A DNA stretch of 64,000 nt from a bacterium (GTDB lineage Bacteria; Zhuqueibacterota; Zhuqueibacteria; Residuimicrobiales; Krinioviventaceae): NCBI GenBank assembly GCA_963674595.2, contig CAXXFV010000023.1, positions 576,001 through 640,000 of the forward strand. The letters are read 5' to 3'. Of this stretch, positions 31,548 to 58,076 are shown piece by piece. Below the pieces are notes generated by a model. The model was not told where the DNA came from. It searched no databases and saw nothing but the letters and a program-made list of their open reading frames with translations. Both the position numbers and the translations under genes were made by a program. The number at the start of each line of letters is the position of its first letter. Within the stretch, counting starts at the first letter, position 1.

Positions 31548-31548
31548 T

Positions 31549-34142: not shown

Positions 34143-34161
34143 ACCTTATCCCCGGAAAATT

Positions 34162-34911: not shown

Positions 34912-36581
34912 TGCTGAATTTTTCTGATAATAATATAAAAAGAAACTGGATTTTGGTAGGTCTGATTTTTGGACTTGCCGCGTTTCTGAGGTTCTATGGT
35001 ATCGATTTCGGCAGCCCCTTCCGTTATCATGCTGATGAAATAAAACTTGTTTCCCAGGCAGGACGATTACTGGATTCGCATTTTTTCTCAAAAGATGTCT
35101 ATTTTGCTATTGGTGTTTATCCGCCTTTATATACATATATACTGGCAGTGCTGTTTGGAGTCTATATCGGAGTCGGATTGCTTTTTGGCCGTTTTGACTC
35201 TCTGGAACATGTTAAGGCAAGTTATTTCCTGGATCCCTTTCAATATTTTTTATTAGGACGCATATTTGTAGCTATTCTGGGATTATTGTCAATTTGGGTG
35301 CTGTATCTTCTTGTAAAGCGCCTGTATTCACAAAAAATTGCTATCATTTCAATTGCGTTACTTGCTGTTGAATTTGTTCATGTAAGGAATTCTCATTTTA
35401 ATACGGTTGATATTCCTGTAACTTTATTTTCTATTTGTTCTATTTATTTTAGCTCACTCATAATTACGAAACAAAAATCCTTAAAGTATTATATCGGCGC
35501 CGTTTTTTTCGCTTCCTGTGCTGTTGCGGTCAAGTTTAGTGCGTTTTATGTTTTGCTGCCCCTGATTTATGCACATATCTATCATGCTTTTAAGGAAAAT
35601 AGTTTTAAAGCGGTGTTTTCCCGTGAAATATGGATTTCCGGAATCGTTGGTCTATTGGTTTTTCTTATTGCTTGTCCATTGTTTGTTTTGGATTTCAACC
35701 AAACAATGAACGGAATCATTGGTACACAAAAGTTTGAAAAGTATGGTAAAATCGGCAGCGGCGGCAGTCTGTTGTCCTATTGGACCGGTGACCAATCACC
35801 TGGTTTTGGGCCTTTTTACCCCAATAGTATTCCGGAAACATTTGGCTATGTTTTAATGTTTGCAGCAATTGTTGGATTGTTGATACAAATTTTAAAACAT
35901 AAAAAGCAGGATATTCTTTTATTAACTTTTATTCTTCCTACATATCTGTTGTTTGAAAATATGGCTTATAAAGCCATGCGGCATATTTTGCCCATTTTAC
36001 CATTTTTGATGGTAAGCAGCGCTGTGGCAATAACCTGGTTTACGGATCGAATAAAGAATAAAAAAATTGCCAATTTTTTATTAATAGCTTTTGTTGGATT
36101 TAATATTGTTTTTCTTGGTATGAAAAATATAGTATATTTTAATAAACTTGAAAAGACAGACCCGCGAACGGCTGCTTTTTACTGGATTGAGGATAATATT
36201 CCCGAACATTCGAAAATTGTTGTAGAGGCTTTTCCGCCCCCGTTATATTTTTCGGAAACAGATGCTGAACAAAGGTACAAAGTTTATAATAAAGAGTATC
36301 AAATATCTCAACTTAAAATGACAACCCGGAAGCCCAACTTTGCTACAAGTGTCATTCAAATGATCCGGGATGAAGGTCTGGAATACTATATTGAGGATGG
36401 TTTTTCTCACAGTTTTTTTGACTGGAAATATACAAACCAAAAATATCCTCTTGTTGTTAAAGACCGGGAAAGGCTAAAAGAGTGGGTTGTTGCCAATAGC
36501 GAACTGGTCAAATCCTTTGATTCTGAAAATCCGAATATTCAACCCTATATTAAAATTTATAAAATGAATTTGCAAAAATGA
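34911..36581 (+). CDS. GT-C glycosyltransferase (GT39/ArnT-like) #2
   Basis: 'LRFYGIDFG...HADE', 'YPPLY', 'SHFNTVD', many TM; GTG start overlapping the upstream TAG. Confidence 0.85.
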   Translation: MLNFSDNNIKRNWILVGLIFGLAAFLRFYGIDFGSPFRYHADEIKLVSQAGRLLDSHFFSKDVYFAIGVYPPLYTYILAVLFGVYIGVGLLFGRFDSLEHVKASYFLDPFQYFLLGRIFVAILGLLSIWVLYLLVKRLYSQKIAIISIALLAVEFVHVRNSHFNTVDIPVTLFSICSIYFSSLIITKQKSLKYYIGAVFFASCAVAVKFSAFYVLLPLIYAHIYHAFKENSFKAVFSREIWISGIVGLLVFLIACPLFVLDFNQTMNGIIGTQKFEKYGKIGSGGSLLSYWTGDQSPGFGPFYPNSIPETFGYVLMFAAIVGLLIQILKHKKQDILLLTFILPTYLLFENMAYKAMRHILPILPFLMVSSAVAITWFTDRIKNKKIANFLLIAFVGFNIVFLGMKNIVYFNKLEKTDPRTAAFYWIEDNIPEHSKIVVEAFPPPLYFSETDAEQRYKVYNKEYQISQLKMTTRKPNFATSVIQMIRDEGLEYYIEDGFSHSFFDWKYTNQKYPLVVKDRERLKEWVVANSELVKSFDSENPNIQPYIKIYKMNLQK

Positions 36582-38359
36582 TCAAAAAATGTATTAATTT
36601 TTTTATTGAAAAAATATCAAATCGTCGGTTTTTATTACTGCTTCTCAGTGTTGCACTGGTTGTTCGTTTAGTGTATATTTTGACGCTTGAAGACAAATGG
36701 TACTTTTATGATACGGTCCATTATGATACGGCGGCCCAAAGCTTGTTGAACGGTGAAGGATTTGGCAAGAGCCTTCATTTTTTCACATTATATTCGCAAT
36801 ACTGTTTGGAACCTTTATATCCGCTGTTTTTATCATTTATTTATTTTATCTTTGGGCGTAATTTTTTAATTGTACGTATTATTCAGGCTTTGATAAGTGT
36901 TGCCACTGTTTTTCTTCTTTATAAATCGGCCAAAGAATTGGGGAATGAAAAAACAGCCCGCTGGACAGCTATCATAGCTTCCTTTTATCCGTTTTATATT
37001 TTTCTTTCCGGGGTTCTTTATGTGACCCAATTGGGATGTTTTTTTCTGCTGGCTGCTTTTTATGGTTTTGTCCGTTTTTCAAAAACGGCAAGTAAAAAGT
37101 GGCTTTTGTTTGCCTCTTGTTTTTATGCTCTGACTTTACATACACAGCCTGTGCTTTTTCCAAGTGTTTTATTATTTGTCCTGTGGATATTGTTTTACCG
37201 GAAAAGAAAATGGAAAAGAGCCGTTATCGATATTTTTTTATTCGGCTCAGTACTGTTTGTGCTTTTGGTCCCCTGGACAGTCCGTAATTATATTGTATTT
37301 AAGCAAATAACCCCAATGCGGGCGTGTCTGGGCCGTGAAGGTGAGATAGTAAACTCTATAAAGATTAAGTTTGAACGTAATAAAGTAATGACTCAAAACG
37401 TTTTTGCTCACAATAAAATCGGCTTTTATACGTATATGGAAAATAAACGTATGATGATCGACTGTTTTGTTGATGACAGTTATTTTTTAACAATCGGTAC
37501 AAGACAGGAACCGGATTCTCTTTTTCCGTATTTTGGACTGGTTTTTAACGGTGATGAGGCACATTACATAAAAAGCTTTTCTGCCTCTCTGCGTCAAATT
37601 ACCGGTAATGACACGGTCGATACACCTGTGGTCCAATCAGGAAAATCTATGGGTGCTTTTACGGCAACGGACCAAATATTTTTGGAAGATGCTAAAATTC
37701 TCGTAAAAAAAACAGATGAAAAATGGAACAATCGGATTGTTTTTAATACATCCAATAAAACCAATTTTTATGAAATTGTTTTCCCCAATGATATATCTCC
37801 GGCCAATGTGAGAAGGGTGGGGGTACTGTTTTCGCTGAATAAAGCTGACTTGAGTACCAATGGTTATATGGTTTGGCTGCACCCCTGGCTTGAACCGGAT
37901 TTATGGATTTTTAAAGATGGGATGCCATCAAACTCTGTTTATATAAAAAAAATTGTTAAAGGACAGAACCAATCCGGTTTTTCCAGTATAGTACAATTGG
38001 TTGTAAATCATCCGGTTGAATTTTTTCGGGACCACTTTATTCCTGAATTTTTTAAATTCTGGTCTCCTTATATTGATCGAATTTTTACAACTTCTAATGA
38101 ACCTTCTTTGCAGATACAAGTTGTTTCATTTATTTCTCTTTTACCGTTGTTGATTTTTGCCCCTATTGGGTTGTTCAGGCAAAAAAATATCAATATTATA
38201 ATTTTAATATTGATACCGGTTTTAACGACCAGTATCGGATATTCAATTTTTGAAACTCAGGTGAGATATCGACTGGTTTTGGACGGTTTTTTGATATTAC
38301 TGGCTATTCCCGGATTTGAATGCTTTTTACAATTATTTCGAAAAAATTTTAGAGATTAG
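36578..38359 (+). CDS. GT-C glycosyltransferase #3 with an inserted beta-rich periplasmic domain of about 180 aa
   Basis: 'DTVHYDTAAQSLLNGEGF', 'PLYPLFL', 'PWTVRNY', 'RYR'; soluble insert at about 37400-37950. Confidence 0.85.
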   Translation: MIKKCINFFIEKISNRRFLLLLLSVALVVRLVYILTLEDKWYFYDTVHYDTAAQSLLNGEGFGKSLHFFTLYSQYCLEPLYPLFLSFIYFIFGRNFLIVRIIQALISVATVFLLYKSAKELGNEKTARWTAIIASFYPFYIFLSGVLYVTQLGCFFLLAAFYGFVRFSKTASKKWLLFASCFYALTLHTQPVLFPSVLLFVLWILFYRKRKWKRAVIDIFLFGSVLFVLLVPWTVRNYIVFKQITPMRACLGREGEIVNSIKIKFERNKVMTQNVFAHNKIGFYTYMENKRMMIDCFVDDSYFLTIGTRQEPDSLFPYFGLVFNGDEAHYIKSFSASLRQITGNDTVDTPVVQSGKSMGAFTATDQIFLEDAKILVKKTDEKWNNRIVFNTSNKTNFYEIVFPNDISPANVRRVGVLFSLNKADLSTNGYMVWLHPWLEPDLWIFKDGMPSNSVYIKKIVKGQNQSGFSSIVQLVVNHPVEFFRDHFIPEFFKFWSPYIDRIFTTSNEPSLQIQVVSFISLLPLLIFAPIGLFRQKNINIIILILIPVLTTSIGYSIFETQVRYRLVLDGFLILLAIPGFECFLQLFRKNFRD

Positions 38360-38368
38360 GAGAATTTC

Positions 38369-38803
38369 ATGTCACTTGAAATTGGAATTTCCTTAAGGGG
38401 ACGCTTGATATTAATTGCGCTGGGATTGGTTTTTATTTGGTTTATTTTTGCGTTGTTGAAAAAAAGAAAAATCAACGAGCCTATTGCCTTGATCTGGCTG
38501 CTTATTTCTATCGGCTCAATTATCGTTCTTTCCAATAATAAAATGCTTTTGGCTTTTACACATTTACTTGGCGCTAAATATCCGGCTTCTGCGCTGGCTA
38601 TGATCGGATTTTTATTTATCATTTCACTGCTTTTGTATTTTACATTTGAGGTGTCCTGGTTACGGAGCAAGTCAAAAGACCTTATACAACATGTTGCTAT
38701 CCAGCAATTTGAATATGAAAACAAAATTAAAGAATTAGAACAAAAAATATCTATATTATCAAGTAAAATTGAACAAAATACAAATAAAGACCAGGAATCG
38801 TAG
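38369..38803 (+). CDS. DUF2304 membrane protein (GacJ/Rv3632-like)
   Basis: 3 TM, 'KRKINEPIALIW', 'LLGAKYPAS', C-terminal coiled coil 'DLIQHVA'. Confidence 0.85.
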   Translation: MSLEIGISLRGRLILIALGLVFIWFIFALLKKRKINEPIALIWLLISIGSIIVLSNNKMLLAFTHLLGAKYPASALAMIGFLFIISLLLYFTFEVSWLRSKSKDLIQHVAIQQFEYENKIKELEQKISILSSKIEQNTNKDQES

Positions 38804-38850
38804 GTTCTGAAAATTAGAATAAATTGCCAAGGAAAAGTTGAGTAGAAATT

Positions 38851-39597
38851 TTGAAAAATAAAAAAATAACAATTGTCATCCCCGCACTTGACGAAGAAAA
38901 AAACTTGCCGCATTTGATACCGCGTTTTCAAAATGCTGCAAAATCTCTTTTAGAATCCGGATTTCAACCGGAACTGGTTTTGATTGACGATGGCTCTACC
39001 GACCAAACGTCCCGAATTGCCAAAGACCATGGATTTTCTGTCGTATCACACCCATATAATCTTGGCGTGTGCGCGGCATTACAAACCGGCTTTTTATTCG
39101 CCGTACAATCGGATAGTGATTTTCTTATTACCATTGATTCTGACGGGCAGCATAATCCCGAAGATATCAGCCTTTTATTAAAGAACCATTTGGAGCATGA
39201 TGCAGATATTACAATTGGTTCCCGTTTTATTAATGAAACCGGGTATGAAAAACAATTGTCCCGTTATATTGGAATTTTGTTATTTTCATTTATTATTAAA
39301 ATGTTTACCGGGAAAAAAATTCACGATATTACATCCGGATTTCGTGTTTTTAGTAAAAAAGCTATAAAATTTTTAGCCAATCATTTTCCGCAAGATTATC
39401 CGGATGCAGAAATACTCATTCTGCTGGCCCGGTTCGGTTATCGTATACAGGAATTCCCTGTGGGTATGAATGCAAGAGTGCATGGAAAATCCATGCATAA
39501 TTTTTTCACCTCAATAATTTATCCCTTTAAAAATGTCATCGCTATATTTGCCGTACTTTTAAGGATACATTTTATTAAAAAAAGAGAAGAGCAATGA
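38851..39597 (+). CDS. DPM1-like GT2, paralog of 34162-34911
   Basis: 'IPALDEE', 'DDGSTD', 'HPYNLG', 'DSDGQH', 'GSRF', 'DITSGFR', 'DYPD'. Confidence 0.88.
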   Translation: MKNKKITIVIPALDEEKNLPHLIPRFQNAAKSLLESGFQPELVLIDDGSTDQTSRIAKDHGFSVVSHPYNLGVCAALQTGFLFAVQSDSDFLITIDSDGQHNPEDISLLLKNHLEHDADITIGSRFINETGYEKQLSRYIGILLFSFIIKMFTGKKIHDITSGFRVFSKKAIKFLANHFPQDYPDAEILILLARFGYRIQEFPVGMNARVHGKSMHNFFTSIIYPFKNVIAIFAVLLRIHFIKKREEQ

Positions 39598-39998
39598 ATT
39601 ATTTACTGGATGTATCGCATCAAACAAAAATTGTTATTACGATAATTGGATTGGGATTTATCTTTTTTAATATTTGGCTGGTTTATCGTCGCAAACTTTC
39701 CGAAAATATGGCGTTGGGATGGAGTGCCATTACGATTATTTCCGTCACAGTTGTCCTCAGCGGCCCTATACTTTCTCATTTTGTCCGAATAACCGGGATT
39801 AAATCCGGCGCTGTTGCCATATCTATGGCCGCGTTTGCTTTTATTTTTGCCATACTTATTCTTTTTTCCATCAAAATGTCTACATTGACAAATCAGAACC
39901 GAAAATTGGCACAGCAAACAGGTTTGTTGGAACAGAAAATTGATAAACTGGAATTACAGTTAAGCAACCGATTAAATTCCGATCCTGAAATCATGTAA
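39594..39998 (+). CDS. DUF2304 membrane protein, second copy
   Basis: 3 TM, 'RRKLSENMALGW', 'RKLAQQ' coiled coil; ATGA-coupled to the GT2. Confidence 0.82.
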   Translation: MNYLLDVSHQTKIVITIIGLGFIFFNIWLVYRRKLSENMALGWSAITIISVTVVLSGPILSHFVRITGIKSGAVAISMAAFAFIFAILILFSIKMSTLTNQNRKLAQQTGLLEQKIDKLELQLSNRLNSDPEIM

Positions 39999-40038
39999 AT
40001 GAACGTTATTTACCGGAATTAGAAATCTGGGATATATA

Positions 40039-40383
40039 ATGAGCATGCAAGAGATTGGCTGTTGCGGGGCTTATTGTAAGACCCGTAAGGAATTTACAAG
40101 AGGGAATTGTCCCGGCTGTAAACTCGGATATACTGAAGGGACAAGAGATATCAATAAGGCAAAATGCAAAATGAAAGTTTGTTGTTTTAAAGAAAAACAA
40201 TTAAATACGTGCGCCGATTGCCGGGATTATCCGTCATGTCCAATCATTCAGACCTGGTTTAACACCTCCGGATACAAGTATAAAAAGTACAAGGAATCAA
40301 TTGAGTATATCAGAAATTTTGGATATGACAGTTTTTTAGCAAAAACTGATCAATGGCAAAATCAATATGGTAAATTGAAATAG
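40039..40383 (+). CDS. Small Cys-rich protein (DUF3795-like)
   Basis: 'IGCCGAYC', 'CPGC', 'CKMKVCC', 'CADC..YPSC'. Confidence 0.75.
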   Translation: MSMQEIGCCGAYCKTRKEFTRGNCPGCKLGYTEGTRDINKAKCKMKVCCFKEKQLNTCADCRDYPSCPIIQTWFNTSGYKYKKYKESIEYIRNFGYDSFLAKTDQWQNQYGKLK

Positions 40384-40520
40384 TACTTTAAAAAGCAATC
40401 ACAGTTTTCTAATTATGTTTTTTTTAAGATCGGTTAATATTGCTGATTTATAAAATGAGCGTTGTGTGCCTGCTGTTGTAAGTATATTAAAAGACAGACT
40501 TTATAATGAGTTGATTTAAA

Positions 40521-41879
40521 ATGGATATTATTGGAATATTATTCTTTTCGCTTGGTTTATTTATGTCTATCACCCAGGGCTTTATGATGCTGGTTGGGAC
40601 ATTGTCCCATGGAGCGCCCCTTGGTGTTGATGTTTTAATGCCGGTTGATATTCCTATTTATCTTATTCTGTTCCTGGTAAAAGACAAAAGCAAAACCACC
40701 CGATTTAAAAACACTGTCACAACCGGTAAAGTCCTTGGGGTATTGTTTTTCCTGTTGTCCATCTCGGGTGTGTTTTTTGCTGAAGAACCGACGTACGTTC
40801 GGTTCCAGATTGTTCTTTTGGGGCGGGCCATACTGGTTTTTTACTGTCTGGCATCCAGGTTACATGATAAAAAATCCCTGGAAAAATTTGTTATTGGCTT
40901 GTTATTTGGTTTTGGTTTTCAATGTCTGATTGGGTTTTATCAATGGCGAGTTGGTCCTATTTCAATCCCATACCTCGTAACACCATCGAAAAATGTTTCC
41001 GGTACCTTTAATGGTGTTAGAAATGCATTTGCTTTGTATCTTATTACGATATTACCCCTGGTTATACGGGTGGCCTTTTTTACAAAACTTCGTTTCAAAT
41101 GGGCCTGGTATGGAATAACCGTAATGGGGTTGGGATGCCTGTTTGCAACATTTACCCGTGGTGCATGGCTGGGTTTTGTTTTTTCAATGGCTTTGTTTTT
41201 TAGCAAAGATTTATTTGCTTCGCGTATGCCGATTCGGCAAAAGATTTATTTTGTGTCGGTCACGATACTTGTCATTCTGGTTATGACATTTCGATACGGA
41301 GGGCACATTACTCAACGAATGTCCGATTCTTCTGAAACATTAAAAGGTGATAAAAAGGAGAGCCGGATAAATTTGGCCAAGGATGCCATACGGGTGTTTA
41401 AACTTCATCCACTGCTTGGTGTTGGAATGGAAAATTATCGCTACCATTCCGATAAATCCATCCCCGGTCTTCGCATTGTTCACAATGCCTATTTATTGAT
41501 AGCCGCCGAACAGGGTGTTTTTAGTATTGTCATATTTTTAATATTACATGGACTGGTATTTTTTCGGGGATTAGCATTACTTGAAGCAAAAGATACTTTT
41601 ATATATCAGGTAGGCTCGGCAACCCTGACTAGTTTTGTCTCTGTTATGATTTATCACATGATTGCGCCCGATTATCGTTTAAATGGCGTGATTACGCATC
41701 ATTGGCGAATTCCGGGGATGATCCTTGGTTTGCTGGTATGTATGGCGTTAAGTGAAAAAGTATCAAAGAGAAAGACTGCCAAACTTGCAGGGAAAAAAGC
41801 GCCTGTGCTTCCACCTGACTCTGACACAAGCAGCTCTTCTGAAAATAATACAACTCACAATAATTTTGGTACGTGGTAA
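40521..41879 (+). CDS. O-antigen ligase / Wzy polymerase family protein
   Basis: 'TFTRGAW', 'R..LAKDA', 'PLLGVGMENY', 'VHNAYLLIAAEQG'; about 11 TM. Confidence 0.88.
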   Translation: MDIIGILFFSLGLFMSITQGFMMLVGTLSHGAPLGVDVLMPVDIPIYLILFLVKDKSKTTRFKNTVTTGKVLGVLFFLLSISGVFFAEEPTYVRFQIVLLGRAILVFYCLASRLHDKKSLEKFVIGLLFGFGFQCLIGFYQWRVGPISIPYLVTPSKNVSGTFNGVRNAFALYLITILPLVIRVAFFTKLRFKWAWYGITVMGLGCLFATFTRGAWLGFVFSMALFFSKDLFASRMPIRQKIYFVSVTILVILVMTFRYGGHITQRMSDSSETLKGDKKESRINLAKDAIRVFKLHPLLGVGMENYRYHSDKSIPGLRIVHNAYLLIAAEQGVFSIVIFLILHGLVFFRGLALLEAKDTFIYQVGSATLTSFVSVMIYHMIAPDYRLNGVITHHWRIPGMILGLLVCMALSEKVSKRKTAKLAGKKAPVLPPDSDTSSSSENNTTHNNFGTW

Positions 41880-41898
41880 TTTTATCTAATTAATATTT

Positions 41899-43359
41899 AT
41901 GGCATCATTAAAAAAGAATATCAGTTTTACCGGTATAAGTCAATTTTTATACGCAATATTGGCTTTTTTACTTATACCGTTTGTTGCCCGCTACCTGGGG
42001 CCGGAAGGATTAGGGCTCTATTCGCTGGCGGCGACAATCGGATTTTTTGTGTCGCTGGCAACAGATTGGGGACTTTCTACTTTACTGACCCGGGAGGTTG
42101 CTCAATATAAATCTTTGGCAGCACGGTTTTTTTCCTATTGCACGAGTATAAAATTTGTTCTCTCTCTGCTATCGTTTTTAATACTGTTAATTTACTTGTA
42201 CCTGGGAGATTTTGGGGACGTTGCCATACAGACGATATTGATTTTTACACTGGCTTCCATTATCAGTTCATTTTCGCAATTGGTATTTTCCGTGTTTCGT
42301 GCATTTGAAAAAATGCATTATGAAGCGTTGGCCGTGTTTATTGATAAATTTTTATCCGTTTTATTGGGTATTACATTTTTGGTGTTAGGATTCGGAATTC
42401 GGGTTTTTATAACTTCGTTTGTCATTGCTGCCATCATTAAATTTTTATATGCTGTTTATATTCTTTCAAAAAATTTCTTTCTCATCAAAGTCCGTTTCAA
42501 CCGAAAAAAATCGGTTGTTCTATTATCTGTTTCCATTACATTCGGTTTGTCTACCTTTTTGGCATTTTGTTATAATTATATAGACATTCTCATGTTAACT
42601 GAAATGACAAGTATGGAAGCGGTTGGACTTTATTCCGGCAGCTACAAGTTTTTAAATTTAACAAGTATGATTCCGGCCGTGCTGGCGACGGCATTTTTGC
42701 CACAGCTTTCCAGGTTTGCACAAAATCGTCAATTGCTCATGCAGACATTTTTTAAGGGGTGCCGTTATTTATGTTACATCGTCCTGCCGCTTGTTCCGGC
42801 AACGTTTTTACTTGCCGGCACCATTGTTTTTCTGGTTTTAGGTCCCGAATATGAAGGGTCTGTTGGGTCATTAAAAATTCTTGTTGTTGCTTCTATGGGG
42901 CAGATGTTTAATACATTTTTTGTGCCGCTTTATGCTGCCGTGAATATGCAAAAAAAAATCGTTTATTTTCAAATAGTTGGGTTATGCTTTAATGTCTTGT
43001 TAAATATAATCTTGATACCAAAATTCAGTTTTTATGGCGCAGCAATTGCAACTGTTTTAACAGAATGGTGTATTTTTATATTTATTTTAACACAGGCAAA
43101 AAAGAAAATTTTTACACCATCACCTGCGGTAAAAGAGTTTTGGACTTTTTTTTATCGTATTTTGATTGCCTCAATTGTTATGAGTATTGGTATACTTGTT
43201 ACGCAATCATTAAATTTTGAAAGTAAATATGTTATATGTATCGCATTTGTGTTGTATGCAGCCATACTGCAGCTATCAGGTGGATTGAATTTTTTTCAAC
43301 TTTATGCGCAACTCGTGGATTTTTTAAAAAGCAGAGAACATATTGACAAACAAAATTGA
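41899..43359 (+). CDS. Wzx-type flippase, second
   Basis: 'ARYLGPEGLG', 'DWGLSTLLTRE', 'VGLYSGSYK', 'LLNIILIPKFSFYGAAIAT'. Confidence 0.9.
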   Translation: MASLKKNISFTGISQFLYAILAFLLIPFVARYLGPEGLGLYSLAATIGFFVSLATDWGLSTLLTREVAQYKSLAARFFSYCTSIKFVLSLLSFLILLIYLYLGDFGDVAIQTILIFTLASIISSFSQLVFSVFRAFEKMHYEALAVFIDKFLSVLLGITFLVLGFGIRVFITSFVIAAIIKFLYAVYILSKNFFLIKVRFNRKKSVVLLSVSITFGLSTFLAFCYNYIDILMLTEMTSMEAVGLYSGSYKFLNLTSMIPAVLATAFLPQLSRFAQNRQLLMQTFFKGCRYLCYIVLPLVPATFLLAGTIVFLVLGPEYEGSVGSLKILVVASMGQMFNTFFVPLYAAVNMQKKIVYFQIVGLCFNVLLNIILIPKFSFYGAAIATVLTEWCIFIFILTQAKKKIFTPSPAVKEFWTFFYRILIASIVMSIGILVTQSLNFESKYVICIAFVLYAAILQLSGGLNFFQLYAQLVDFLKSREHIDKQN

Positions 43360-44113: not shown

Positions 44114-44137
44114 TATGCGACTATTTGAGGATAGCTT

Positions 44138-46210: not shown

Positions 46211-46470
46211 TTGCCTTTGGGGGATATTGTTTTTTTGATTTAATATTTATTTACATAATCCTTGGGGGATTTTTATCTTTTTCTGTTCCCATGTTTAACA
46301 ACAGATTCGTCTTTTTAATCTTTTCCTGCCACAAGTATCTTGTTTTTTAATTCAAATATCCTTAATTTTTTAACCATATTTTTTTTCTGCATATTGGCTT
46401 GTGCAGCAATATATTTAAGTGGTAATATAAAGCTCAGGCTTTTTCATTTCTATTAGAATCTGGAGTCTTT

Positions 46471-48576: not shown

Positions 48577-48585
48577 AGTAAAAAT

Positions 48586-50223: not shown

Positions 50224-51439
50224 AGATTCTGATAAAAAACTGCGGATTGCTTATTTTAATTATATGCAGGATTTATACGGCAGTTCAATTGGTTCAACAA
50301 TAAAAGCAAAAGAACTGCTGACTCACCTAGAGTTACTGGGTCATTCGGTTTTTTATTATTGGCGCTATGAAAATCAAAACCATACCGGTAGTGTTGACAA
50401 CCGGTCCGATACGGTTTCTTTTTGGAAAAAATCTGCTTTTCGTCGATTATTGTTTACACCCAAAGAATTGTTGAAAAACCTGGTGGAGCTTTTCAGAGAA
50501 GCCCGGTTTATAAAACAAAATAAACCGGATATTATTATTTTTCGCCTGGACGCCTATCGCTATTCTTTGGTTTTGCTTTCGAAAATATTAAAAATTCCTT
50601 TGCTGGTTGAAGCGGATGGCGCCATGTCCTATGAATGGCTCACCTACAGCAACAAGGATGGAATCATCTGGAAATCAGTTATTTTGTTTGTTGAAAACTT
50701 TTGTTTAAAGTCCGGCCGGAAAATTTTTGTTCAGTCTAATACAAGCAAACAATATTACCTTGATAAACATCATCTGCCATCTGAAAAGATAGCTGTTGTT
50801 ACCAATGCGGCCCGAATTGAAAAAGAAAACACGCACCCGGAGTTATTGAGGGGGAAACTGGATATTCCATCAGATTCTGTCGTGATTGGATTCATGGGTT
50901 CTTTTCATTTCTGGCATGGTGTTAGTTTGCAAACCGTTCTTGTTGAACATGTGATGAAAAATTATGATCATGTGTATTTCTTGTTCATCGGCAGCGGCGG
51001 CCCTGTTGTTCAGCAGCTTCGAAATACTGTGAAAGAAAATGGCTGGTCCTCAAAAGTCAAATTTATTGATTTTGTTCCGCATGATGAACTTTATAAATAT
51101 GTTGATGTTTTTGATATTGCTTTGGCGCCCTATAGTGACAAAAATCTGTTCTATTATTCTCCTGTCAAACTTTTTGAGTACATGGTCCGTGCAAAACCCG
51201 TGTTGACTGTTAAAGTCGGTCAGATTGCTGAAATTATTAGCGATGGGCAGAACGGACTGTTTTTTAATCCGAATGATATAGAGGATTTGTATTCAAAGAT
51301 TGATAGGTTGATTAGCGATCCTGACCTTAGAGTGCGAATGGGAAATGAAGCTCAAAAAGTCATTAAAAAAGATCATACCTGGCCCCATAAAGCGGCACAG
51401 TTGCAAAAAATTTGTTATGAAATGTTAAATAATCACTAG
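50183..51439 (+). CDS. GT4 glycosyltransferase (start uncertain)
   Basis: 'IGFMGSFHFWHG', 'VPHDE', 'FYYSPVKLFEYM', 'GQNGLFF'. Confidence 0.88.
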   Translation: MPLFPFRRQGERIKDSDKKLRIAYFNYMQDLYGSSIGSTIKAKELLTHLELLGHSVFYYWRYENQNHTGSVDNRSDTVSFWKKSAFRRLLFTPKELLKNLVELFREARFIKQNKPDIIIFRLDAYRYSLVLLSKILKIPLLVEADGAMSYEWLTYSNKDGIIWKSVILFVENFCLKSGRKIFVQSNTSKQYYLDKHHLPSEKIAVVTNAARIEKENTHPELLRGKLDIPSDSVVIGFMGSFHFWHGVSLQTVLVEHVMKNYDHVYFLFIGSGGPVVQQLRNTVKENGWSSKVKFIDFVPHDELYKYVDVFDIALAPYSDKNLFYYSPVKLFEYMVRAKPVLTVKVGQIAEIISDGQNGLFFNPNDIEDLYSKIDRLISDPDLRVRMGNEAQKVIKKDHTWPHKAAQLQKICYEMLNNH

Positions 51440-51455
51440 TTTTACTGGAATTATT

Positions 51456-53054
51456 ATGCGAAAAATATTTTGGATTGTAATCGCGGTTTTGGCGCTATTG
51501 ACACCTGTCATATATTTTTATGGAATTGATCAGCTTGTTTTGGGTAGTGATGAGCTGCATCCTGCCCGGATTATAGTTGGTAACGACTGGAGCCTGACGC
51601 ACTATCCCTGGCCGAAAGAAGCTGTCCGCGAATATTATGACAACTGGCCGGTCCAGTTCCCCCCGTTATTCGGATTGTTGACCCGGGCCAGTGTTGTTGT
51701 TTTTGGAGCCGGGCATTTCGCACTTCGGTTTTTTCCTGCTTTATTTGCTTTATGTGCGCTTTTTGCAAGTTTTTTCCTGTTTCGAAAATTTATGAAACCG
51801 GAACTTGCCGCCATTGCCGGCCTTGTGATGGGCTGGAGTTCCGACATTATGATTGACTATGCCAAGTTTTTTAAACATTACACGGCAGATGTTTTGTGCG
51901 CCATTATTATTTTTATTCTGACGATTTCAATTATTAAATCAGGAAAATTGAAATACTGGGTTTTGCTGGCTTTGGTTTCTGCTACAAGTATCTGGCTGGC
52001 CTTTGCCTCTTTTTTCGCCATTGCCACCGCGTTCGGATTGATATTATTGCATCAATTTTTAATTAAAGATTTGAAAAATAAACAGTTCTGGCTCAAATAT
52101 GTATGTTCCGGTTTGTTTTTGTTTTGTTCTTTTATTGCCTTGTATTTTATTAATATAGCTAATGCCGTCAGCAATCCTGTGTTTTTAATGGATTGGGGAT
52201 ACCAAATTTTTAACTGGCAGCGAGCCGGTGATGCCATGTATTGGTTTATGTATTGGAAATATATTATCAGTCAAATTGTTTTAATGCCGGCCTATTTTTT
52301 CAAGATGTCGGTCGGAATCGGTATTGTCGCAAATATTTTAATACTGGTATGGGTGATACAGGCTTTTTTAAAAAAGGATTTTGAAAATCTGTTTTTGATG
52401 CTGACACCCATGCTGTTGTTGATCCTTGCTTCCTTTGCCGGAAAATACCCGTTTTATGCGTCAAGGTTATCACTCATATTGTTGCCATTATGGATTATTA
52501 TGATTTATAACGGCGCTGTTATTGTATTCGACAAACTGAAAAATGTAAAATTCGCCAAACCGGTTTTGGTCGCACTTCTCATTGTGCTTTTCCTTCATCC
52601 GGCCTATTCCAATGTGATAAAGGTGAAAACACTTGACTTTCCGAATCGTCGTCAGGTCGATCAGTTGATGTATGATTTAAAAGACCAGGTTCAGGACGGC
52701 GATACGGTTATGCTGCATTGGGGCGCTATTTTGGCTTTTTATTTTTATTTTACAGACCATCAATCCGGCTATCTGGAATATTATGCGACAAAAGACAATG
52801 CCGGAGAGATTACAATAATTTACGGTGAGGAACACAGATTACACCCGGAACTGAACCAGGTGTTTTTTGATCGTGTAAAGAGTGAATCGGGGCGTTTATG
52901 GGTTGTTTTTTGTCATCAGTGGCCGAATGATGATATGCTGCAATTAAAGGAGCAGTTGGATGCATCGCGGGAACAAATTTCATACATAAAACATAACGGC
53001 TGCCGTGCGTTTTTATATGGGCCGAATCAGGAATTGAATTACAATGAAAATTAG
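51456..53054 (+). CDS. GT-C glycosyltransferase #5
   Basis: First-loop 'SDE', 'QFPPLF', 'ALRFFP', 'KHY..D', 'YPFYASRL'; many TM. Confidence 0.82.
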   Translation: MRKIFWIVIAVLALLTPVIYFYGIDQLVLGSDELHPARIIVGNDWSLTHYPWPKEAVREYYDNWPVQFPPLFGLLTRASVVVFGAGHFALRFFPALFALCALFASFFLFRKFMKPELAAIAGLVMGWSSDIMIDYAKFFKHYTADVLCAIIIFILTISIIKSGKLKYWVLLALVSATSIWLAFASFFAIATAFGLILLHQFLIKDLKNKQFWLKYVCSGLFLFCSFIALYFINIANAVSNPVFLMDWGYQIFNWQRAGDAMYWFMYWKYIISQIVLMPAYFFKMSVGIGIVANILILVWVIQAFLKKDFENLFLMLTPMLLLILASFAGKYPFYASRLSLILLPLWIIMIYNGAVIVFDKLKNVKFAKPVLVALLIVLFLHPAYSNVIKVKTLDFPNRRQVDQLMYDLKDQVQDGDTVMLHWGAILAFYFYFTDHQSGYLEYYATKDNAGEITIIYGEEHRLHPELNQVFFDRVKSESGRLWVVFCHQWPNDDMLQLKEQLDASREQISYIKHNGCRAFLYGPNQELNYNEN

Positions 53055-53070
53055 ATAGAGCGGAAAAGAA

Positions 53071-54192
53071 ATGTCAGAAGAAAAAAAAATAAACGTGCTG
53101 CAACTCGTTGAAGGGTTCAGTCTTGGCGGTGCTGAAAAAAAATTGTGGGAATTGATTGCGAAAATGGACCGCAGCAAATACCGAACAGTGGTTTGCAGCC
53201 TGGGTCTGGGAGACACCATTCAGGAATATTTTGAAAAACTGGATGTCAAGGTCGTGACCTTGACGCGAAAAAGCAAATTTGATCTTTCTCTTATCTGGAG
53301 ATTACGGGCGCTGATCCGCGAAGAAAAAATAGATGTAATAATGACGACGCTGTTTTATGCGGATTTTTTAGGTGCTTTGGTCGGTAAATGGGCCGGTGCC
53401 AAAGCGGTTTTTTCCTGGGAAACCATTTCTTCTCCCAAATGGCTGGTATGGCATCGATTATATTCCTATCGGGCTGCTATTAAACTGGCAGACCGGGTTA
53501 TTTCGGTTTCACAGGCCACAGCAGAGTGGTTGAGAGAAAAGCGCGGCGTTGCTGCCCGGCAAATTGAGGTTATTCCCTATGGAGTGGACCTTGATATGTT
53601 TCAAGCCAAACCGGAACCTGATTTAAAGCAGGAACTGGGCCTGAGCTCTGAACAGCCTGTTGTCGGCATGGTTGGCCGGTTAAATGAACAAAAAGGCCAC
53701 GTTTATTTGATTGATGCCGCTGAAATTGTTGTTAAAAAAGTGCCGAATGTCCGTTTTTTGCTGGTTGGTGACGGTCCGCTTCGTCAGGAACTGGAAGAAA
53801 AGGTCGCTTCCAAAGGATTGCAGGATAATTTTATTTTCCTGGGGTTTCGGCACGATGTTCCAAGGTTATTGCGAATTTTTGATATTTTTACATTGCCATC
53901 TTTATATGAAGGATTACCCAATGTGGTGCTTGAAGCAATGGCCGTGAACCTGCCTGTTGTTGCAACACCTGTTGACGGTACCAAGGAAGCGGTCGTCCAG
54001 GATGAGACAGGTTTACTGATACCGGAAAAAAATCCCGGGGCATTAGCCGATGCTTTGATTGAACTTTTGACGGACAAAGAAAAGGCTGTAGAGATGGGAA
54101 ACAATGGAAGAAGGCGTGTTGAACAAGAGTTTTCTTTGCAGAAACAGGTTTCAAGTTTTGAAGATATTTATGCCGAATGGGCAAAAAAATAG
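53071..54192 (+). CDS. GT4 glycosyltransferase
   Basis: 'GGAEK', 'VGRLNEQKG', 'LGFRHDV', 'SLYEGLPNVVLEAMA'. Confidence 0.92.
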   Translation: MSEEKKINVLQLVEGFSLGGAEKKLWELIAKMDRSKYRTVVCSLGLGDTIQEYFEKLDVKVVTLTRKSKFDLSLIWRLRALIREEKIDVIMTTLFYADFLGALVGKWAGAKAVFSWETISSPKWLVWHRLYSYRAAIKLADRVISVSQATAEWLREKRGVAARQIEVIPYGVDLDMFQAKPEPDLKQELGLSSEQPVVGMVGRLNEQKGHVYLIDAAEIVVKKVPNVRFLLVGDGPLRQELEEKVASKGLQDNFIFLGFRHDVPRLLRIFDIFTLPSLYEGLPNVVLEAMAVNLPVVATPVDGTKEAVVQDETGLLIPEKNPGALADALIELLTDKEKAVEMGNNGRRRVEQEFSLQKQVSSFEDIYAEWAKK

Positions 54193-54220
54193 ATTTTAAA
54201 TTTAGTGTGGATATAATAAT

Positions 54221-55447
54221 ATGAAAATTTTAATGGTTCATAAATTTTACTATGTTGAAGGCGGCGCCGAACGTTACGTATTTAATTTAACACATTTGCT
54301 TGAAAAAAAAGGACATACTGTTATTCCGTTTGCCATGAAGCATGAAAAGAATTTTGAAACAGAATATGCCGATTATTTTGCCGATACATTGCAGGTTGAT
54401 CAGGTTAAATCCGGTTTTGGTTTATCGGACAGAATTTCATCAATAAAACAATTTATTTATAATAAAAATGCGCAGGTGCAGTTGGCCCGGTTGATTAAAG
54501 ATACAAAACCGGACATTGCCCATGTTCACAGCATTTATCATCATCTTTCACCGTCGGTTTTGGACACGTTAAAAGAGTATAATTTGCCGGTAATTCAAAC
54601 GCTGCATGATTATAAGCTGGTGTGTCCGAATTATATATTTTTAAACGGCCGGGGAGAGAATTGTGAAAAATGTAAAGGCAGGGCCTACTGGCACGCCGTT
54701 ACAAACAAGTGTTTCCATAAATCTTACTCTGCCAGCGCTCTTATCGCTGCGGAGGGGTATTATCACCGGTTTGCAAATACCTATAAAAAGAATATTGATT
54801 TGTTTACATCCCCCAGCCGGTTTTTAGGTGACAAGGTTGTCAAGTACGGCTTTCCAAAGGAAAAAATGATATTTTTCCCCTATACCCTGCCTTTAGAGGA
54901 TTATGTGCCGAATTATGATTATGATGATTCTGCCATATTTATGGGCAGGCTGACCCGTGAAAAGGGTGTCTGGTCGCTTTTGCAGGCCATGCAAGAATGC
55001 CGTGAATTGAATTTGAAAATCGCCGGAACCGGTCCTATCGAAAATGAACTAAAAGACTATGTCCGTAAAAATAATATGTCCAATGTTAAATTTCTTGGAT
55101 ACCTGAATGAAAAAGAGTTGAAAAAAGTTGTAGCACAATCCCGTTTTACAATTGTCCCTTCAATTTGGCACGATAATTCGCCATTGGTTATATATGAATC
55201 CATGGCGTTGGGAAAACCTGTTCTGGGCGCTAAAAGCGGCGGTATTCCGGAATTGGTTGATAATGGAAAAACCGGGTATATTTTTGAACCCGGCAATGTA
55301 CCGGATTTGGTTGAAAAAATACGTAAAATTAATAATGATGGTACGTTGAAAGAAATGAGTTATTCGGCACGTAAAAGGGCCGAGGAGAATTATGCTCCTG
55401 AGGTACATTATCCGCAGGTAATAAAGTTGTATGAAATGATAAAATAA
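54221..55447 (+). CDS. GT4 glycosyltransferase
   Basis: 'GGAERY', 'TLHDYKLVCP', 'GRLTREKG', 'SIWHDNSPLVIYESMA'. Confidence 0.92.
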   Translation: MKILMVHKFYYVEGGAERYVFNLTHLLEKKGHTVIPFAMKHEKNFETEYADYFADTLQVDQVKSGFGLSDRISSIKQFIYNKNAQVQLARLIKDTKPDIAHVHSIYHHLSPSVLDTLKEYNLPVIQTLHDYKLVCPNYIFLNGRGENCEKCKGRAYWHAVTNKCFHKSYSASALIAAEGYYHRFANTYKKNIDLFTSPSRFLGDKVVKYGFPKEKMIFFPYTLPLEDYVPNYDYDDSAIFMGRLTREKGVWSLLQAMQECRELNLKIAGTGPIENELKDYVRKNNMSNVKFLGYLNEKELKKVVAQSRFTIVPSIWHDNSPLVIYESMALGKPVLGAKSGGIPELVDNGKTGYIFEPGNVPDLVEKIRKINNDGTLKEMSYSARKRAEENYAPEVHYPQVIKLYEMIK

Positions 55448-55680
55448 TTCGGATTCTTGTTGAAATTTTAATTTTTATATATTATATTCTTAAAATCGTA
55501 TAAAATATAAATAATTCGTTTTTATTTGATTTTATACATAAAATTACTGCCAAGAGCTATTGTTTCGAAGAGAGGAAAAGCATCGTATAACCAATTTTAT
55601 TGGTTTTTGTCAGGCAGCATACTCGAAATTGTAGTATCCTCATTCATTTTTCCCAATTATCGAAATTTTTCTCTCAGCAT

Positions 55681-55697
55681 CTGGCATAGTGTTTGCG
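55681..55697 (+). promoter_or_regulatory. Putative sigma-54 (RpoN) -24/-12 promoter
   Basis: CTGGCATAGTGTTTGCG versus consensus YTGGCACGRNNNTTGCW; exact GG-N10-GC spacing, about 150 nt before ATG 55849. Confidence 0.65.
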
Positions 55698-55848
55698 TTT
55701 TTACGGCGCATAATATAGAGAACTCTTGTTTTTTATGGAGTAATAACCAGTTGTTTTATGAGCAAATACAAATCTGCTGTATCCGGTACAAACAGTTGTT
55801 TTGTTCTGAAACAGAACTATGTATCAATTGATCGGGAGGATAAAAGGC

Positions 55849-57060
55849 ATGATGATCCGAAATCCTTTTATAAAACTTTTTCCCCTTATACTTATCAGTA
55901 TAATGATTCTGTTTACAGTCGGCGTACAAGCCGCTACAGATACTTTTGAGCGTGCAGACGGCGCCTTGGGGAGCAGCTGGCAAGCATCGCCTGAACTTGT
56001 TGTCCAAAGTGGCAATTTTCATAATTCGGGTCCTGACAACAGTTGGAAATACACGGCTGTTTATAATCAGGAATCAGATCCGAACAGGGTTGAAATGCAG
56101 CTTGCCGGTTCAACGGACGGCTGTGATACCAACGGCGCCGGCCTTGTTGGTATTGCCTATTTAAACGCCTTGTCTGCGACGGCGGACGGCTATTTTATTC
56201 ATTATCGCGTTGTAGCGAATGAATACCGTCTTTATGTACGTAAAGATCAGGCTCTTGCGCTGGTTAATACACTTGCAAGCAGCGGTACAGCTTTAACGCC
56301 AGGTTCTACATTGCGTGTGGATTTTGACAAAAACAATTTTACTTTTGATGTTTATGTTGACGGAACATCGGTTGGTACATTACAGGATGCCGCTCATTCT
56401 GGGCGTGGCATTACCTGGTCCACCCATTATGCGGGTATTATATCGTTTGGTAATGGACAATTAAACGATGTTGAAAGTTTTTCCGCAAGTTATGTCATAC
56501 CGAGCACGGATGTTACGCCCCCTGCAACAATTTCCGATCTGTCTGCAACTGCAATGTCCTCTTCTATCGTTAAGCTGGCATGGACGGCTACAGGTGATGA
56601 CGGCACAGGCGGCACAGCGAGTGAATATGATATCCGCTATTCAACAAGCACCATAACATCTTCTAATTTTAACGCTGCAACAAAAGTAACATCTGTTACG
56701 GCCCCGAAAATCTCCGGTTTGGATGAGGCGATTAATGTTTCGGGATTAGCTGCTTCTACGTTATATTATTTTGCCATTAAAGCGAGGGATGAGGCTTATA
56801 ACTGGTCGAACATTTCTAATGTTCCTTCGGCAACAACAGCAGAAGGAACAACGCCGACAGGTTCATACAAATCCATTACGGATGATTTTGAGCGTACGGA
56901 CCTGGGGCCGGATTGGAATGCAACATCTGCTATGCTAATTGATAACGGCAAGTTGTATCATACTAAAGACAACAGCACTTGGAATAATTATGCGGTTTAT
57001 ACCGCAAAAAAACAGTCCAAAAGCGATCGCCTATCGCTATGCAGCGACTTTGGGAACTGA
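55849..57060 (+). CDS. Giant surface protein, segment 1 (signal peptide, beta-sandwich domain A1, FN3, start of A2); frameshift at A7 57006-57012
   Basis: RBS GGAGG then ATG 55849; 'DTFER' domain; FN3 'LAWTATGDDG...YDIRYS...YYFAIKARDE'; sensible sequence continues in the +1 frame after 'YAVYTAK'. Confidence 0.8.
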   Translation: MMIRNPFIKLFPLILISIMILFTVGVQAATDTFERADGALGSSWQASPELVVQSGNFHNSGPDNSWKYTAVYNQESDPNRVEMQLAGSTDGCDTNGAGLVGIAYLNALSATADGYFIHYRVVANEYRLYVRKDQALALVNTLASSGTALTPGSTLRVDFDKNNFTFDVYVDGTSVGTLQDAAHSGRGITWSTHYAGIISFGNGQLNDVESFSASYVIPSTDVTPPATISDLSATAMSSSIVKLAWTATGDDGTGGTASEYDIRYSTSTITSSNFNAATKVTSVTAPKISGLDEAINVSGLAASTLYYFAIKARDEAYNWSNISNVPSATTAEGTTPTGSYKSITDDFERTDLGPDWNATSAMLIDNGKLYHTKDNSTWNNYAVYTAKKQSKSDRLSLCSDFGN

Positions 57061-58075
57061 TGGTGCCATAACGGCCGGACATGCCGTTCTTTTGGACAAT
57101 ACCGATCCATCGATAATGAACGGTTATATGATTTTAAGAAGAAGTTCCGTTCTAAGTTTATTTGAAATTAACAACGGTGGATATGGTGCAAAGTTAAAAG
57201 AGGTCACTGGGGCACTTAACCAACCTATAGCTGGTGATGAGGTTAAAGTAGAGATTACGGTTGATGAGGCAACAAACGACCAGACCTTTGATTTTTATAT
57301 TAATGATATTTTTGATGCCCAGATTGTAATGCCTGCGGCGTCTTATAATCCTGGAACTACCTGGTATTCCGGTATTGTTCAGCATAGCGCTTATGATAAT
57401 TGGATTGAAGATTTTACGTTTTTCTATGAAGGCAGCGGCGGTCCGGAATCAATCAGTGCTTATTCCGGTGGCGACCAGTCCGGTCCCATTCAGCAGCAAT
57501 TACCCAATCCTGTGGTTGTGCAGGTGCTGGATGCTGCCGGTGAACCCTATGAAGGTGCTTTGCTTGATTTTCAGATTGCACAGGGAACTGCCCGTTTGGA
57601 TGATTTGGAAGATTTTGCGTTTGACGGCTATATTTGGCGGGAAGCTGAGAGTGGTAATATTCTTCATGCAGCCGCTAAAGTTCAGGAGGATGAAAATGCC
57701 TCCAACGGTGAATATATCTATCTGGATTATATTGCGGGAACACGAGAGAAAAGGATGTTTGAAATTCCGTTTTATGTCCCTGAAAATCTGAATTATAATA
57801 TTTATATGCGTTATAAAACAAATGATAAAGATGATTTTTATGCCGGTATAGATAATGGTGATTCAACGCATGTAACATTGACCAATAAAAATAATGTATG
57901 GACCTGGCAGAAAGTTTTGAATAAAACACTAACCAAAGGTTTACACACTTTTAATTACATTCTTTGGGAACCCTATATCAGCGTCGATAAAATTTTGATT
58001 GTTGATAATACTAAAACCGTTAATTTAGGCTCCAGTCAGGGAGGTTCCGGGCCTGATTTTCCAAATGTTACGGAT
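57011..58075 (+). CDS. Giant surface protein, segment 2 (rest of A2, Big_1-like domain with inserted CBM-like module); within ORF-track 56939-58141
   Basis: 'NSPKAIAY...', 'SGGDQSG...LPNPVVVQVLDAAGEP', CBM6/35-like 'WREAESG...ASNGEYI'; becomes nonsense after 'PNVTD'. Confidence 0.78.
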
Positions 58076-58076
58076 T

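Follow-up and report, generated by a model that had tools for sequence, protein, structure and literature searches.

A circularly permuted surface-protein domain in the periplasmic loop of a GT-C glycosyltransferase from candidate division KSB1

Introduction

The locus described here raises the question of how a membrane glycosyltransferase came to carry, in swapped order, the two halves of a domain that occurs at the beginning of a giant secreted protein encoded downstream, and what such a domain may do in the enzyme. The window, by which we mean the whole stretch of 64,000 nucleotides that was analysed (positions 576,001 to 640,000 of contig CAXXFV010000023.1), is from a member of candidate division KSB1. 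It contains the gene for GT-C #3 (36578..38359, forward strand), a GT-C glycosyltransferase of 593 residues that belongs to the PMT_2 family and has a large insert between its transmembrane (TM) segments. The gene for the giant protein follows 18.5 kb further on, and the domain in question, here called the A domain and about 190 residues long, is represented in its first part by the copies A1 and A2.

A preliminary description, made from the sequence alone, had proposed that the insert matches both halves of the A domain in swapped order. This observation is confirmed: the insert and the A domain are homologous, and the former is a true circular permutant of the latter. As the best explanation we propose that a unit spanning the junction between two tandem A domains was captured in a loop of a GT-C enzyme, where it would act as an accessory module that holds the acceptor, and we assign a probability of roughly 0.6 to this proposal.

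Results and Discussion

The insert matches both halves of the A domain in swapped order

The first part of the insert (37403..37600, forward strand, residues 276-341) corresponds to the C-terminal half of the A domain (strands 10-14 of A1), and its second part (37664..37954, forward strand, residues 363-459) to the N-terminal half (strands 1-9 of A1). The two are separated by a diverged junction (37601..37663, forward strand, residues 342-362), in which a strand at residues 345-353 lies at the place of the N-terminal strand of the A domain. The preliminary description had recognised a linker of about 20 residues at this position; it is better described as a degenerate remnant of the junction between two copies together with the A N-terminal strand.

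A1 was searched against 1.84 billion representative proteins, which gave 76 matches at E 0.001 or better. A profile hidden Markov model (HMM) was then built from 101 A domains, namely A1 and 100 domain matches covering A1 nearly end to end. Because of this filter for full-length coverage, permuted inserts were kept out of the profile; P0073, the sole GT-C enzyme among the 76 proteins, and P0074 were excluded as half-length matches. In GT-C #3, HMM positions 134-188 match residues 288-340 and HMM positions 26-117 match residues 370-460 (32.7 bits). The C-half precedes the N-half in all 20 sequences when 19 orthologues are included, with HMM positions of about 110-190 at residues of about 265-350 and HMM positions of about 20-115 at residues of about 370-460. 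A scan of the source genome (28,575 six-frame open reading frames (ORFs) of at least 60 residues) found only six matching ORFs: A1, A2 (in two frames), a 599-residue protein on contig C4, a 2703-residue protein on contig C6, and GT-C #3 itself (E 2.6e-10, 40.8 bits).

In a profile-profile comparison, an independent alignment of 31 A domains was compared by hhalign with an alignment of the 20 inserts. The N-half was aligned from A 18-109 to GT-C 363-451 (Prob 96.7, E 3.2e-10) and the C-half from A 122-190 to GT-C 276-341 (Prob 93.2, E 3e-7). The insert motifs IDCFVDD, YFGLVFNG and IKSFSAS, which had been paired with motifs of the A domains by hand, fall into aligned columns in this comparison. 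After the halves have been swapped back, the insert is identical to A1 at 28 of 155 positions and to A2 at 26 of 157 (17-18%).

A chance likeness of two beta-rich sequences, with no permutation involved, has on its side that pairwise BLASTP of the insert against A1, while returning the swapped order, reaches only E 0.025 and 0.59; against A2, too, the pairwise comparison does not convince by itself. We nevertheless give this explanation next to no credence, as it is refuted by the profile and profile-profile comparisons, by the swap-back test described below, and by the 45% identity of a sister insert to a tandem junction.

Less diverged enzymes connect the insert with tandem A domains

In a scan of 167 genomes from the phylum, a strongly matching enzyme was found in 28 genomes besides the source, all of them within the order of the window. 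Weaker matches came from ORFs of about 600 residues in three more distant genomes (L135, L136 and L137). Together with P0073, these three are PMT_2 proteins, and all four resemble GT-C #3 in their TM scaffolds (111-160 bits, 33-41% identity), compared to at most 43 bits for the other GT-C enzymes of the window.

The inserts of these four enzymes are less diverged. They match HMM positions 117-192 followed by HMM positions 4-114, with 127-232 bits. When their halves are swapped back, all four give a single full-length match (from HMM 3/7 to 187/189) with an increased score, and their junction stretch aligns to the N-terminus of the A domain from HMM position 3-7. The 20 diverged inserts of the window's order were still matched in two pieces after swapping, because about 40 flanking residues remained at the new junction. 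Thus the search with native and half-swapped halves, which had been suggested as a check, yielded the swapped order in all 20 native sequences and a single match in each of the four less diverged ones, but not in the diverged set.

In its native order, the insert of P0073 aligns in one piece to residues 158-340 of the giant protein P0003, with 45% identity over 194 columns (E 1.5e-54). This segment of P0003 spans the junction of two back-to-back A copies, at residues 39-230 and 233-425. The insert of GT-C #3 is likewise collinear with tandem arrays, those of L138 (E 4e-7) and P0012 (E 3e-6). The insert therefore corresponds to the second half of one copy together with the first half of the copy behind it. 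A junction-spanning unit of this kind is predicted by the model of permutation by duplication (PMC3320104), and the order of the insert, as judged from its sequence, fits this model.

Back-to-back A copies occur in KSB1 giants, for example at residues 41-228 and 230-428. Giants with at least three A copies were also seen in other families of KSB1 (L138 on G058:C31 and L139 on G051:C2). Back-to-back giants of this kind are the likely source type of the permuted insert.

The breakpoint is identical in all inserts, that is in the 20 of the window's order and in the four less diverged ones. Given the shared scaffold, the common breakpoint and the constrained tree described below, we interpret the insert as having a single old origin, with long-branch attraction as a caveat, and the permuted form most likely arose only once. 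When all ORFs of 80 GT-C loci from all bacteria were compared with the A profile, matches came from 15 loci, all among L055-L071, and from none of the 63 loci of other phyla in this set (L072-L134). A protein-atlas look-up with P0073 returned, as leads, only generic PMT_2 clusters that come from other phyla and have a comparable length, and a homologue search with the insert region of GT-C #3 returned as its sole match a near-identical protein of 417 residues. The GT-C #3 subfamily was found here only in candidate division KSB1.

Membrane topology and predicted folds

GT-C #3 matches PF13231 (PMT_2) at residues 79-233 with 46.2 bits (curated cutoff 26.1). Its TM helices extend to about residue 241 and resume at 511-592; in a hydropathy scan, TM segments reach to residue 237 and resume at 509-587, leaving about 270 soluble residues between them. 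Lysine and arginine are enriched in the loop at about 205-213 (YRKRKWKRA), in the loop at 534-538 and at the C-terminus, so that by the positive-inside rule residues 242-508 are assigned to the periplasm. The predicted topology thus bears out the periplasmic position that had been proposed for the insert and agrees with that of other GT-C enzymes. In the first outward loop, after TM1, a D-T-x-H-Y-D stretch is conserved in the GT-C #3 alignment and may be catalytic.

The AF2 model of GT-C #3 has a pLDDT of 86.0 and a pTM of 0.77. In VIA comparisons, its membrane core matches ArnT (5f15) with Z 23.3 (316 aligned residues, root-mean-square deviation 3.9), AglB with Z 23.0 and Pmt4 with Z 21.6; STT3 likewise lies within the range of Z 21-23. 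Foldseek, run with the whole model, ranks Pmt1/2 and Pmt4 highest. GT-C #3 is not a PMT proper, since its loop domain is predicted to be a sandwich of the concanavalin A (ConA) type and not a MIR beta-trefoil.

In the model the insert is all-beta from residue 280 to 459, with helices on both flanks. The strands of its first part are at residues 280-288, 291-298, 301-308, 318-323 and 333-342, and those of the second part within 361-459. When mapped by hhalign, strands 10-14 of A1 correspond to residues 280-342 of the enzyme, strands 1-9 to residues 361-459, and the N-terminal strand to residues 345-353. In the predicted structures, every A1 strand has a counterpart in the insert, in cyclic order, and the insert forms one compact domain.

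A1 itself is predicted with high confidence (pLDDT 95.2, pTM 0.91) as a ConA-like jelly roll of 14 strands in canonical order. In VIA, its best matches include a phage baseplate protein (Z 16.6), a phage receptor-binding domain (Z 16.3) and the carbohydrate-binding module (CBM) CBM66 (4b1m, Z 14.7, 154 aligned residues), as well as peanut lectin (Z 12.1, 174 aligned), ERGIC-53 and Emp46/47 (Z 11.6-12.2), DUF1080 (3hbk, Z 11.4) and GH16. A total of 148 chains reached Z 8 or more, and Foldseek gave E 2.4e-7. No ConA-type lectin is among the best 50 matches listed for A1. For the insert, the beta-sandwich proteins among the matches listed are all ConA, Dioclea or Canavalia lectins, with Z 7.7-8.1 over 146-153 aligned residues (model residues 274-454), and in addition 1ajo, a glucanase that was circularly permuted by engineering (Z 7.8). 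The standard example of two permuted lectins is the pair of ConA and peanut lectin (PMC3320104). The ConA order of the insert, shared with 1ajo, and the peanut-lectin/CBM66 order of A1, shared with the native glucanase and GH16 enzymes, both taken from models, thus support the permutation, although they fall short of proof. They also agree with the lectin-like nature that had been assumed for the insert, which holds as a ConA-like predicted fold.

We also predicted a complex of the insert (residues 245-500) with an A domain. The result (score 0.00, mark 0.32) gives no answer, and it speaks neither for nor against an interaction.

The neighbouring A domains are not the source of the insert

A quick maximum-likelihood tree was calculated from 98 domains after removal of the junction columns. 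All 20 inserts from the order of the window group together in a clade with support 99 and a branch length of 1.45. The A1 domain of the window belongs to a clade of 31 first A domains of giants that contains none of the 24 GT-C inserts. That the insert is a copy of the A1 or A2 domain of its neighbour, as might be concluded from the preliminary description, can thus be dismissed. When the 24 inserts were held as one clade, the tree was 24 log-likelihood units better than the free tree (p-AU 0.866).

Among canonical A domains, 34 columns are conserved in at least 75% of the sequences. The four less diverged inserts keep 29 of these (counted when present in at least 3 of up to 4 residues). The clade of the window keeps about 13 of the 34, all of them core positions, such as W39 (20/20), G85 (20/20), Y166 (18/20) and G168 (20/20). 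The best conserved stretch of these inserts follows the NGYM motif (WLHPW.E.DLW...G.P..S) and lies near the exit of the domain to the membrane; W433, P436, D441 and P450 are invariant. Most likely the insert has diverged fast in the window's order of KSB1.

A glycan island between the enzyme and the giant gene

GT-C #3 is encoded within a surface-glycan island (19484..55447, forward strand), the genes of which are co-directional. The island codes for five GT-C, six GT2 and six GT4 glycosyltransferases, two Wzx-like proteins and a Wzy_C protein and, according to Pfam, also for a methyltransferase, a sulfatase-like protein, a Golvesin_C protein, a B12/radical SAM enzyme, an epimerase and a YdjC protein. 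All five GT-C enzymes are of the PMT_2 type, and related loci have the genes from GTC1 to GT4d in the same order. The Golvesin C-terminal-domain protein (44138-46210) has 690 residues and is conserved in the island of relatives; the radical SAM enzyme, at 21959-23410, has a B12-binding domain.

In a common scheme, three-component periplasmic glycosylation combines a polyprenyl-phosphate sugar synthase, a flippase and a GT-C enzyme (PMC11127046). Two GT2 genes lie close to GT-C #3. One of them, GT2a (34162..34911, forward strand, PF00535), resembles polyprenyl-phosphate sugar synthases. The best NCBIfam likeness of GT2a and of GT2b, the other one, is to such synthases (for GT2a, these are PpgS, AglJ and ArnC), all below cutoff. 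The order GT2a-GTC2-GTC3 is collinear in four of the seven related loci that were compared (L060, L055, L056 and L069), while GT2a has no match in the other three (L062, L065 and L067). GT2b, a DUF2304 gene (39594-39998) and an ORF of 114 residues occupy the interval between GT-C #3 and the Wzy_C gene (38851-40383) in this window only; in related loci, this interval has another length or contains other genes. A dedicated three-part system of GT2b, DUF2304 and GT-C #3 was considered and dropped, as both genes are absent from this position in the seven related loci. No flippase of the three-component scheme was identified at the locus, and to assign this role to the DUF2304 protein, which is not conserved in the related loci, would be a mere guess.

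The preliminary description had further proposed a link between the enzyme and the giant protein that should be visible in co-occurrence and synteny. A domains are present in 58 of 60 relatives and the enzyme in 28 of 60, and because A domains are nearly ubiquitous their co-occurrence with the enzyme says little. Among the 14 relatives in which both genes are on one contig, 13 have the giant gene 10.7-21.5 kb downstream of the enzyme on the same strand. The exception is G009, with a distance of 565 kb. In G057, no further A domain is present on the 210-kb contig that carries the enzyme. In G040, where the enzyme and an A-domain gene are on different contigs, synteny is probably absent. The other 13 of the 28 enzyme-bearing genomes are too fragmented for such an analysis. 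Thus the synteny is real in part of the order and reflects a conserved island, while the proposed link finds no further backing in a special kinship between the insert and the neighbouring A domains.

These data bear on two explanations that assign the insert and the giant protein to a common process. In the first, both would bind one and the same glycan, such as the polymer that the island builds, and a single module would serve in making a surface glycan as well as in gripping it. The homology of the domains, the synteny and the collinear island agree with this, as do the fold neighbours of A1, which are carbohydrate binders and phage receptor-binding domains. However, the insert clade is long-branched and lies outside the clade of A1, sequence identity is only 17-18%, polar residues conserved across the A family have disappeared from this clade, and A domains occur in far more relatives than the enzyme, with synteny absent in G009 and G057. 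We therefore consider a shared glycan unlikely. An extended version, in which one lectin fold in two topologies reads the same self-made glycan in the enzyme and in the giant protein, so that the enzyme would hold the polymer during its decoration and the giant protein would grip it on the same or on a neighbouring cell, appears more speculative still. If it were true, the island would be a matched adhesion system of a glycan plus its own reader in an uncultured phylum.

According to the second explanation, the enzyme would be a protein glycosyltransferase, and the insert would dock the giant protein as acceptor, similar to the MIR domain of PMTs. The top Foldseek matches and the synteny with the giant gene are in line with this. 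The MIR domain of Pmt4 binds an acceptor peptide (PMC12586580), and dedicated glycosyltransferases encoded near adhesins have been described. On the other hand, GT-C #3 has no match to PF02366 (PMT proper, GT39) at E 0.01 or better, the VIA scores of ArnT, AglB and STT3 are as high as that of Pmt4, the Wzx-like and Wzy_C genes of the island are typical of polysaccharide assembly, and in G009 and G057 the enzyme has no giant gene nearby. Only a small chance remains, in our view, that the giant protein is the acceptor.

Comparison with other GT-C enzymes and a proposed role of the insert

In PMTs, the MIR domain is located precisely in the connection of TM7 with TM8. The enzymes of the PMT/POMT type (GT39) resemble GT-C #3 in combining a GT-C fold with an outward acceptor- or carbohydrate-binding beta domain after TM7, which is again followed by TM helices. 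They differ in that the domain is a beta-trefoil instead of a predicted ConA-like jelly roll, in the match to PF02366, and in the setting, which for GT-C #3 is a polysaccharide island. The TM7-TM8 connection of PMTs forms the catalytic pocket (PMC12586580), and the mannose-binding sites of the MIR domain affect processivity (PMC7759382). A second group, EmbC with EmbA/B and AftD, also consists of GT-C enzymes with a periplasmic lectin-like module, and their TM core matches that of GT-C #3 with Z 12-14. The CBM of EmbC binds the arabinan acceptor and is required for extension (PMC3044687). The Emb modules are C-terminal, while that of GT-C #3 is in a loop, the two are unrelated in sequence, and the Emb modules have not been reported to be permuted or to be homologous to a module of a neighbouring adhesin.

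Because the CBM of EmbC and the MIR domain of PMTs act on the acceptor side, we propose a corresponding role for the insert. The proposal starts from what has been established above, namely homology and permutation, a compact (predicted) fold, a periplasmic position, the restriction to one enzyme subfamily, and the conserved placement in an island that ends with the giant gene. The back half of one copy and the front half of the copy after it would have been taken as one piece from a tandem A array and placed once into the loop of the enzyme, with fast divergence afterwards in the order of the window. The loop after the seventh TM helix would then hold a complete ConA-like jelly roll with the strand order 10-14, the former N-terminal strand, and 1-9. 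By analogy, this domain may be an acceptor-side module, lectin-like or CBM-like, which places a glycan, or less likely a peptide, beside the active site. The sugar would come from a polyprenyl-phosphate donor made by a neighbouring GT2 enzyme, for which GT2a is a candidate. The tie to the giant protein would consist of a shared ancestry of the module and of the location in one island, with a shared ligand being only a possibility.

Several observations weigh against this proposal. Taken by itself, the C-half of GT-C #3 reaches no more than 6.3 bits with the A profile (up to 34 bits in orthologues), and neither A1 nor the insert has a Pfam or NCBIfam match at E 1 or better. The fold matches of the insert, at Z of about 8, are near the background level stated for the tool. 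In the free tree, the four less diverged inserts stand among domains of tandem arrays, apart from the other inserts, and the result of the approximately unbiased (AU) test may be subject to the same long-branch pull. As GT2b and the DUF2304 gene are not conserved, the donor-supplying GT2 enzyme is a guess. Otherwise conserved positions have been lost in the clade of the window (D154 in 0/20, W58 in 0/20, G66 in 1/20 and N177 in 8/20 are retained), and the N-terminal DxF...W motif is not alignable there. The insert of the window may therefore bind something else, or nothing.

This last point leads to an explanation in which the insert has lost ligand binding and is purely structural, as a lid or spacer at the active site or as a surface for oligomerisation. 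It would account for the loss of conserved polar positions from a domain that keeps its core, and for the location of the best conserved stretch near the exit to the membrane. It is less easily reconciled with a domain that has stayed intact in every one of the 20 orthologues as well as in the four less diverged enzymes, the latter with 29 of 34 conserved positions, and comparable accessory domains of other GT-C enzymes do bind acceptors (PMC3044687, PMC7759382). A merely structural insert thus seems improbable to us, and we retain the acceptor-side module as the preferred role.

Permutations within the ConA fold are known, as are lectin-like domains on GT-C enzymes. The earlier statement that no system with such an arrangement has been described was therefore too strong, at least with regard to GT-C enzymes with lectin-like accessory domains, as the reports on EmbC (PMC3044687) and on the MIR domain of PMTs (PMC7759382) illustrate. 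The pairs ConA versus favin or peanut lectin and Bacillus glucanase versus 1ajo are, like the insert and A1, permutations of the ConA fold whose breakpoint falls about midway along the domain. The permutation of ConA is post-translational and proceeds by cleavage and ligation (PMC3320104); in GT-C #3, by contrast, the permutation is already encoded in the gene, and the permuted domain is embedded in a membrane enzyme. A parallel in terms of origin is the saposin/swaposin pair, where a permuted unit from a tandem junction was inserted into an unrelated enzyme, a plant aspartic protease (PMC3320104). That case concerns another fold and other organisms, while here the array, single domains and the permutant coexist in one phylum, with up to 45% identity. 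A permuted ConA-like insert in a GT-C loop with an extant tandem source was not found in our searches, which covered open-access full texts.

The giant secreted protein

The giant gene (55819..64000, forward strand) would code for about 2,750 residues if read as one and has its stop codon 6 codons past the end of the window. The protein consists of A1 (55939..56535, forward strand), an fn3 domain (56530..56814, forward strand; PF00041, 28.3 bits, residues 238-332 of the first ORF), A2 (56881..57436, forward strand), Big_1 repeats (198 bits in Pfam) and a putative C-terminal domain of the type IX secretion system (T9SS) type. At the C-terminus, FlgD_ig was matched with 36.7 bits (cutoff 27), while Por_Secre_tail (23.6 bits) and CHU_C (26.1 bits) were both below 27.

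As assembled, the gene is in three frames, with ORFs at 55819..57060, 56939..58141 and from 58065 to the end. A1 is complete in the first ORF (residues 41-239, HMM 3-197, 164.5 bits). A2 is cut by a +1 frameshift at a run of seven A residues (57006-57012), so that frame 1 holds the match to HMM 3-51 (46.0 bits) and frame 2 the match to HMM 47-189 (105.2 bits). Thus the two A copies that the preliminary description had placed at the start of the protein are real, but the frameshift within A2 had been read through unnoticed. A second +1 frameshift at 58060..58110 (forward strand) was localised by the frame change in tblastn. Three intact relatives of 2,689-2,735 residues (P0004, P0005 and P0009) are collinear across all three frames.

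We checked both sites in the region 56600-58400 with contigs of the relatives X8 and X10 and with those of a single sample that had been sequenced in two runs (X6 and X7). The contigs of this sample are at least 99% identical to the window, and the sample may be the source of the assembly. The base at 57006 is missing in X8 and also in one X7 contig that has no other difference, and the base at 58075 is missing in X8 and X10. The X6 contigs end or begin exactly at both frameshift sites, including 58075/58076. Both frameshifts are thus probably assembly errors or variants. As both are +1 shifts and the extra base is absent from other contigs, the gene is probably whole in the population. We had also considered that it is a pseudogene, but the reads argue against this.

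The A domain family and other genes

Most of the 76 proteins matched by A1 are giants of 2,300-3,400 residues that carry two to five copies of the domain, some of them back to back. Pfam content was checked for 15 of the 76. In proteins of other types (P0074, P0071, P0065, P0075, P0027, P0010 and P0050), A domains were found after a GDSL esterase and fn3 domains, together with T9SS tails, and beside malectin. The source genome codes for a second giant of 2703 residues with an A domain (G000:C6:185693-193801) and for a protein of 599 residues (G000:C4:370817-372613) in which the A domain is combined with Ig-like and cohesin-like parts and which belongs to a family present in many relatives. These mixed architectures suggest that the A domain is a general carbohydrate-related module of secreted KSB1 proteins. 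CBM66, DUF1080 and the L-type lectins are among the best fold matches of A1, yet there is no match to their sequence families, and the phage domains score higher; in particular, the A domain was not found to belong to a CBM66-type sequence family.

Two other genes of the window were noted, both on the reverse strand. One codes for another T9SS cargo protein with LVIVD/beta-propeller repeats (5135-7516; Por_Secre_tail, 43.8 bits). The product of the other (13927-15618, 563 residues) combines 4Fe-4S and [FeFe]-hydrogenase large-subunit domains with a methyl-accepting chemotaxis signalling domain; judged by these domains, it resembles a fusion of a hydrogenase-like sensor with a chemoreceptor output.

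Conclusions

With single domains, tandem arrays and the permuted product all present in one phylum, permutation by duplication is documented in KSB1 with a completeness that is unusual in nature, and the permuted product sits nested in a polytopic membrane enzyme. If the analogy to EmbC and PMTs holds, the insert would represent a third kind of acceptor-side accessory domain of GT-C enzymes, beside the MIR beta-trefoil and the Emb modules. The analysis also defines an uncharacterised family of lectin-like domains of KSB1 surface proteins. Inserts of the P0073 type are soluble and well predicted and thus offer themselves as targets for finding the ligand, which would also tell what the giant proteins bind.

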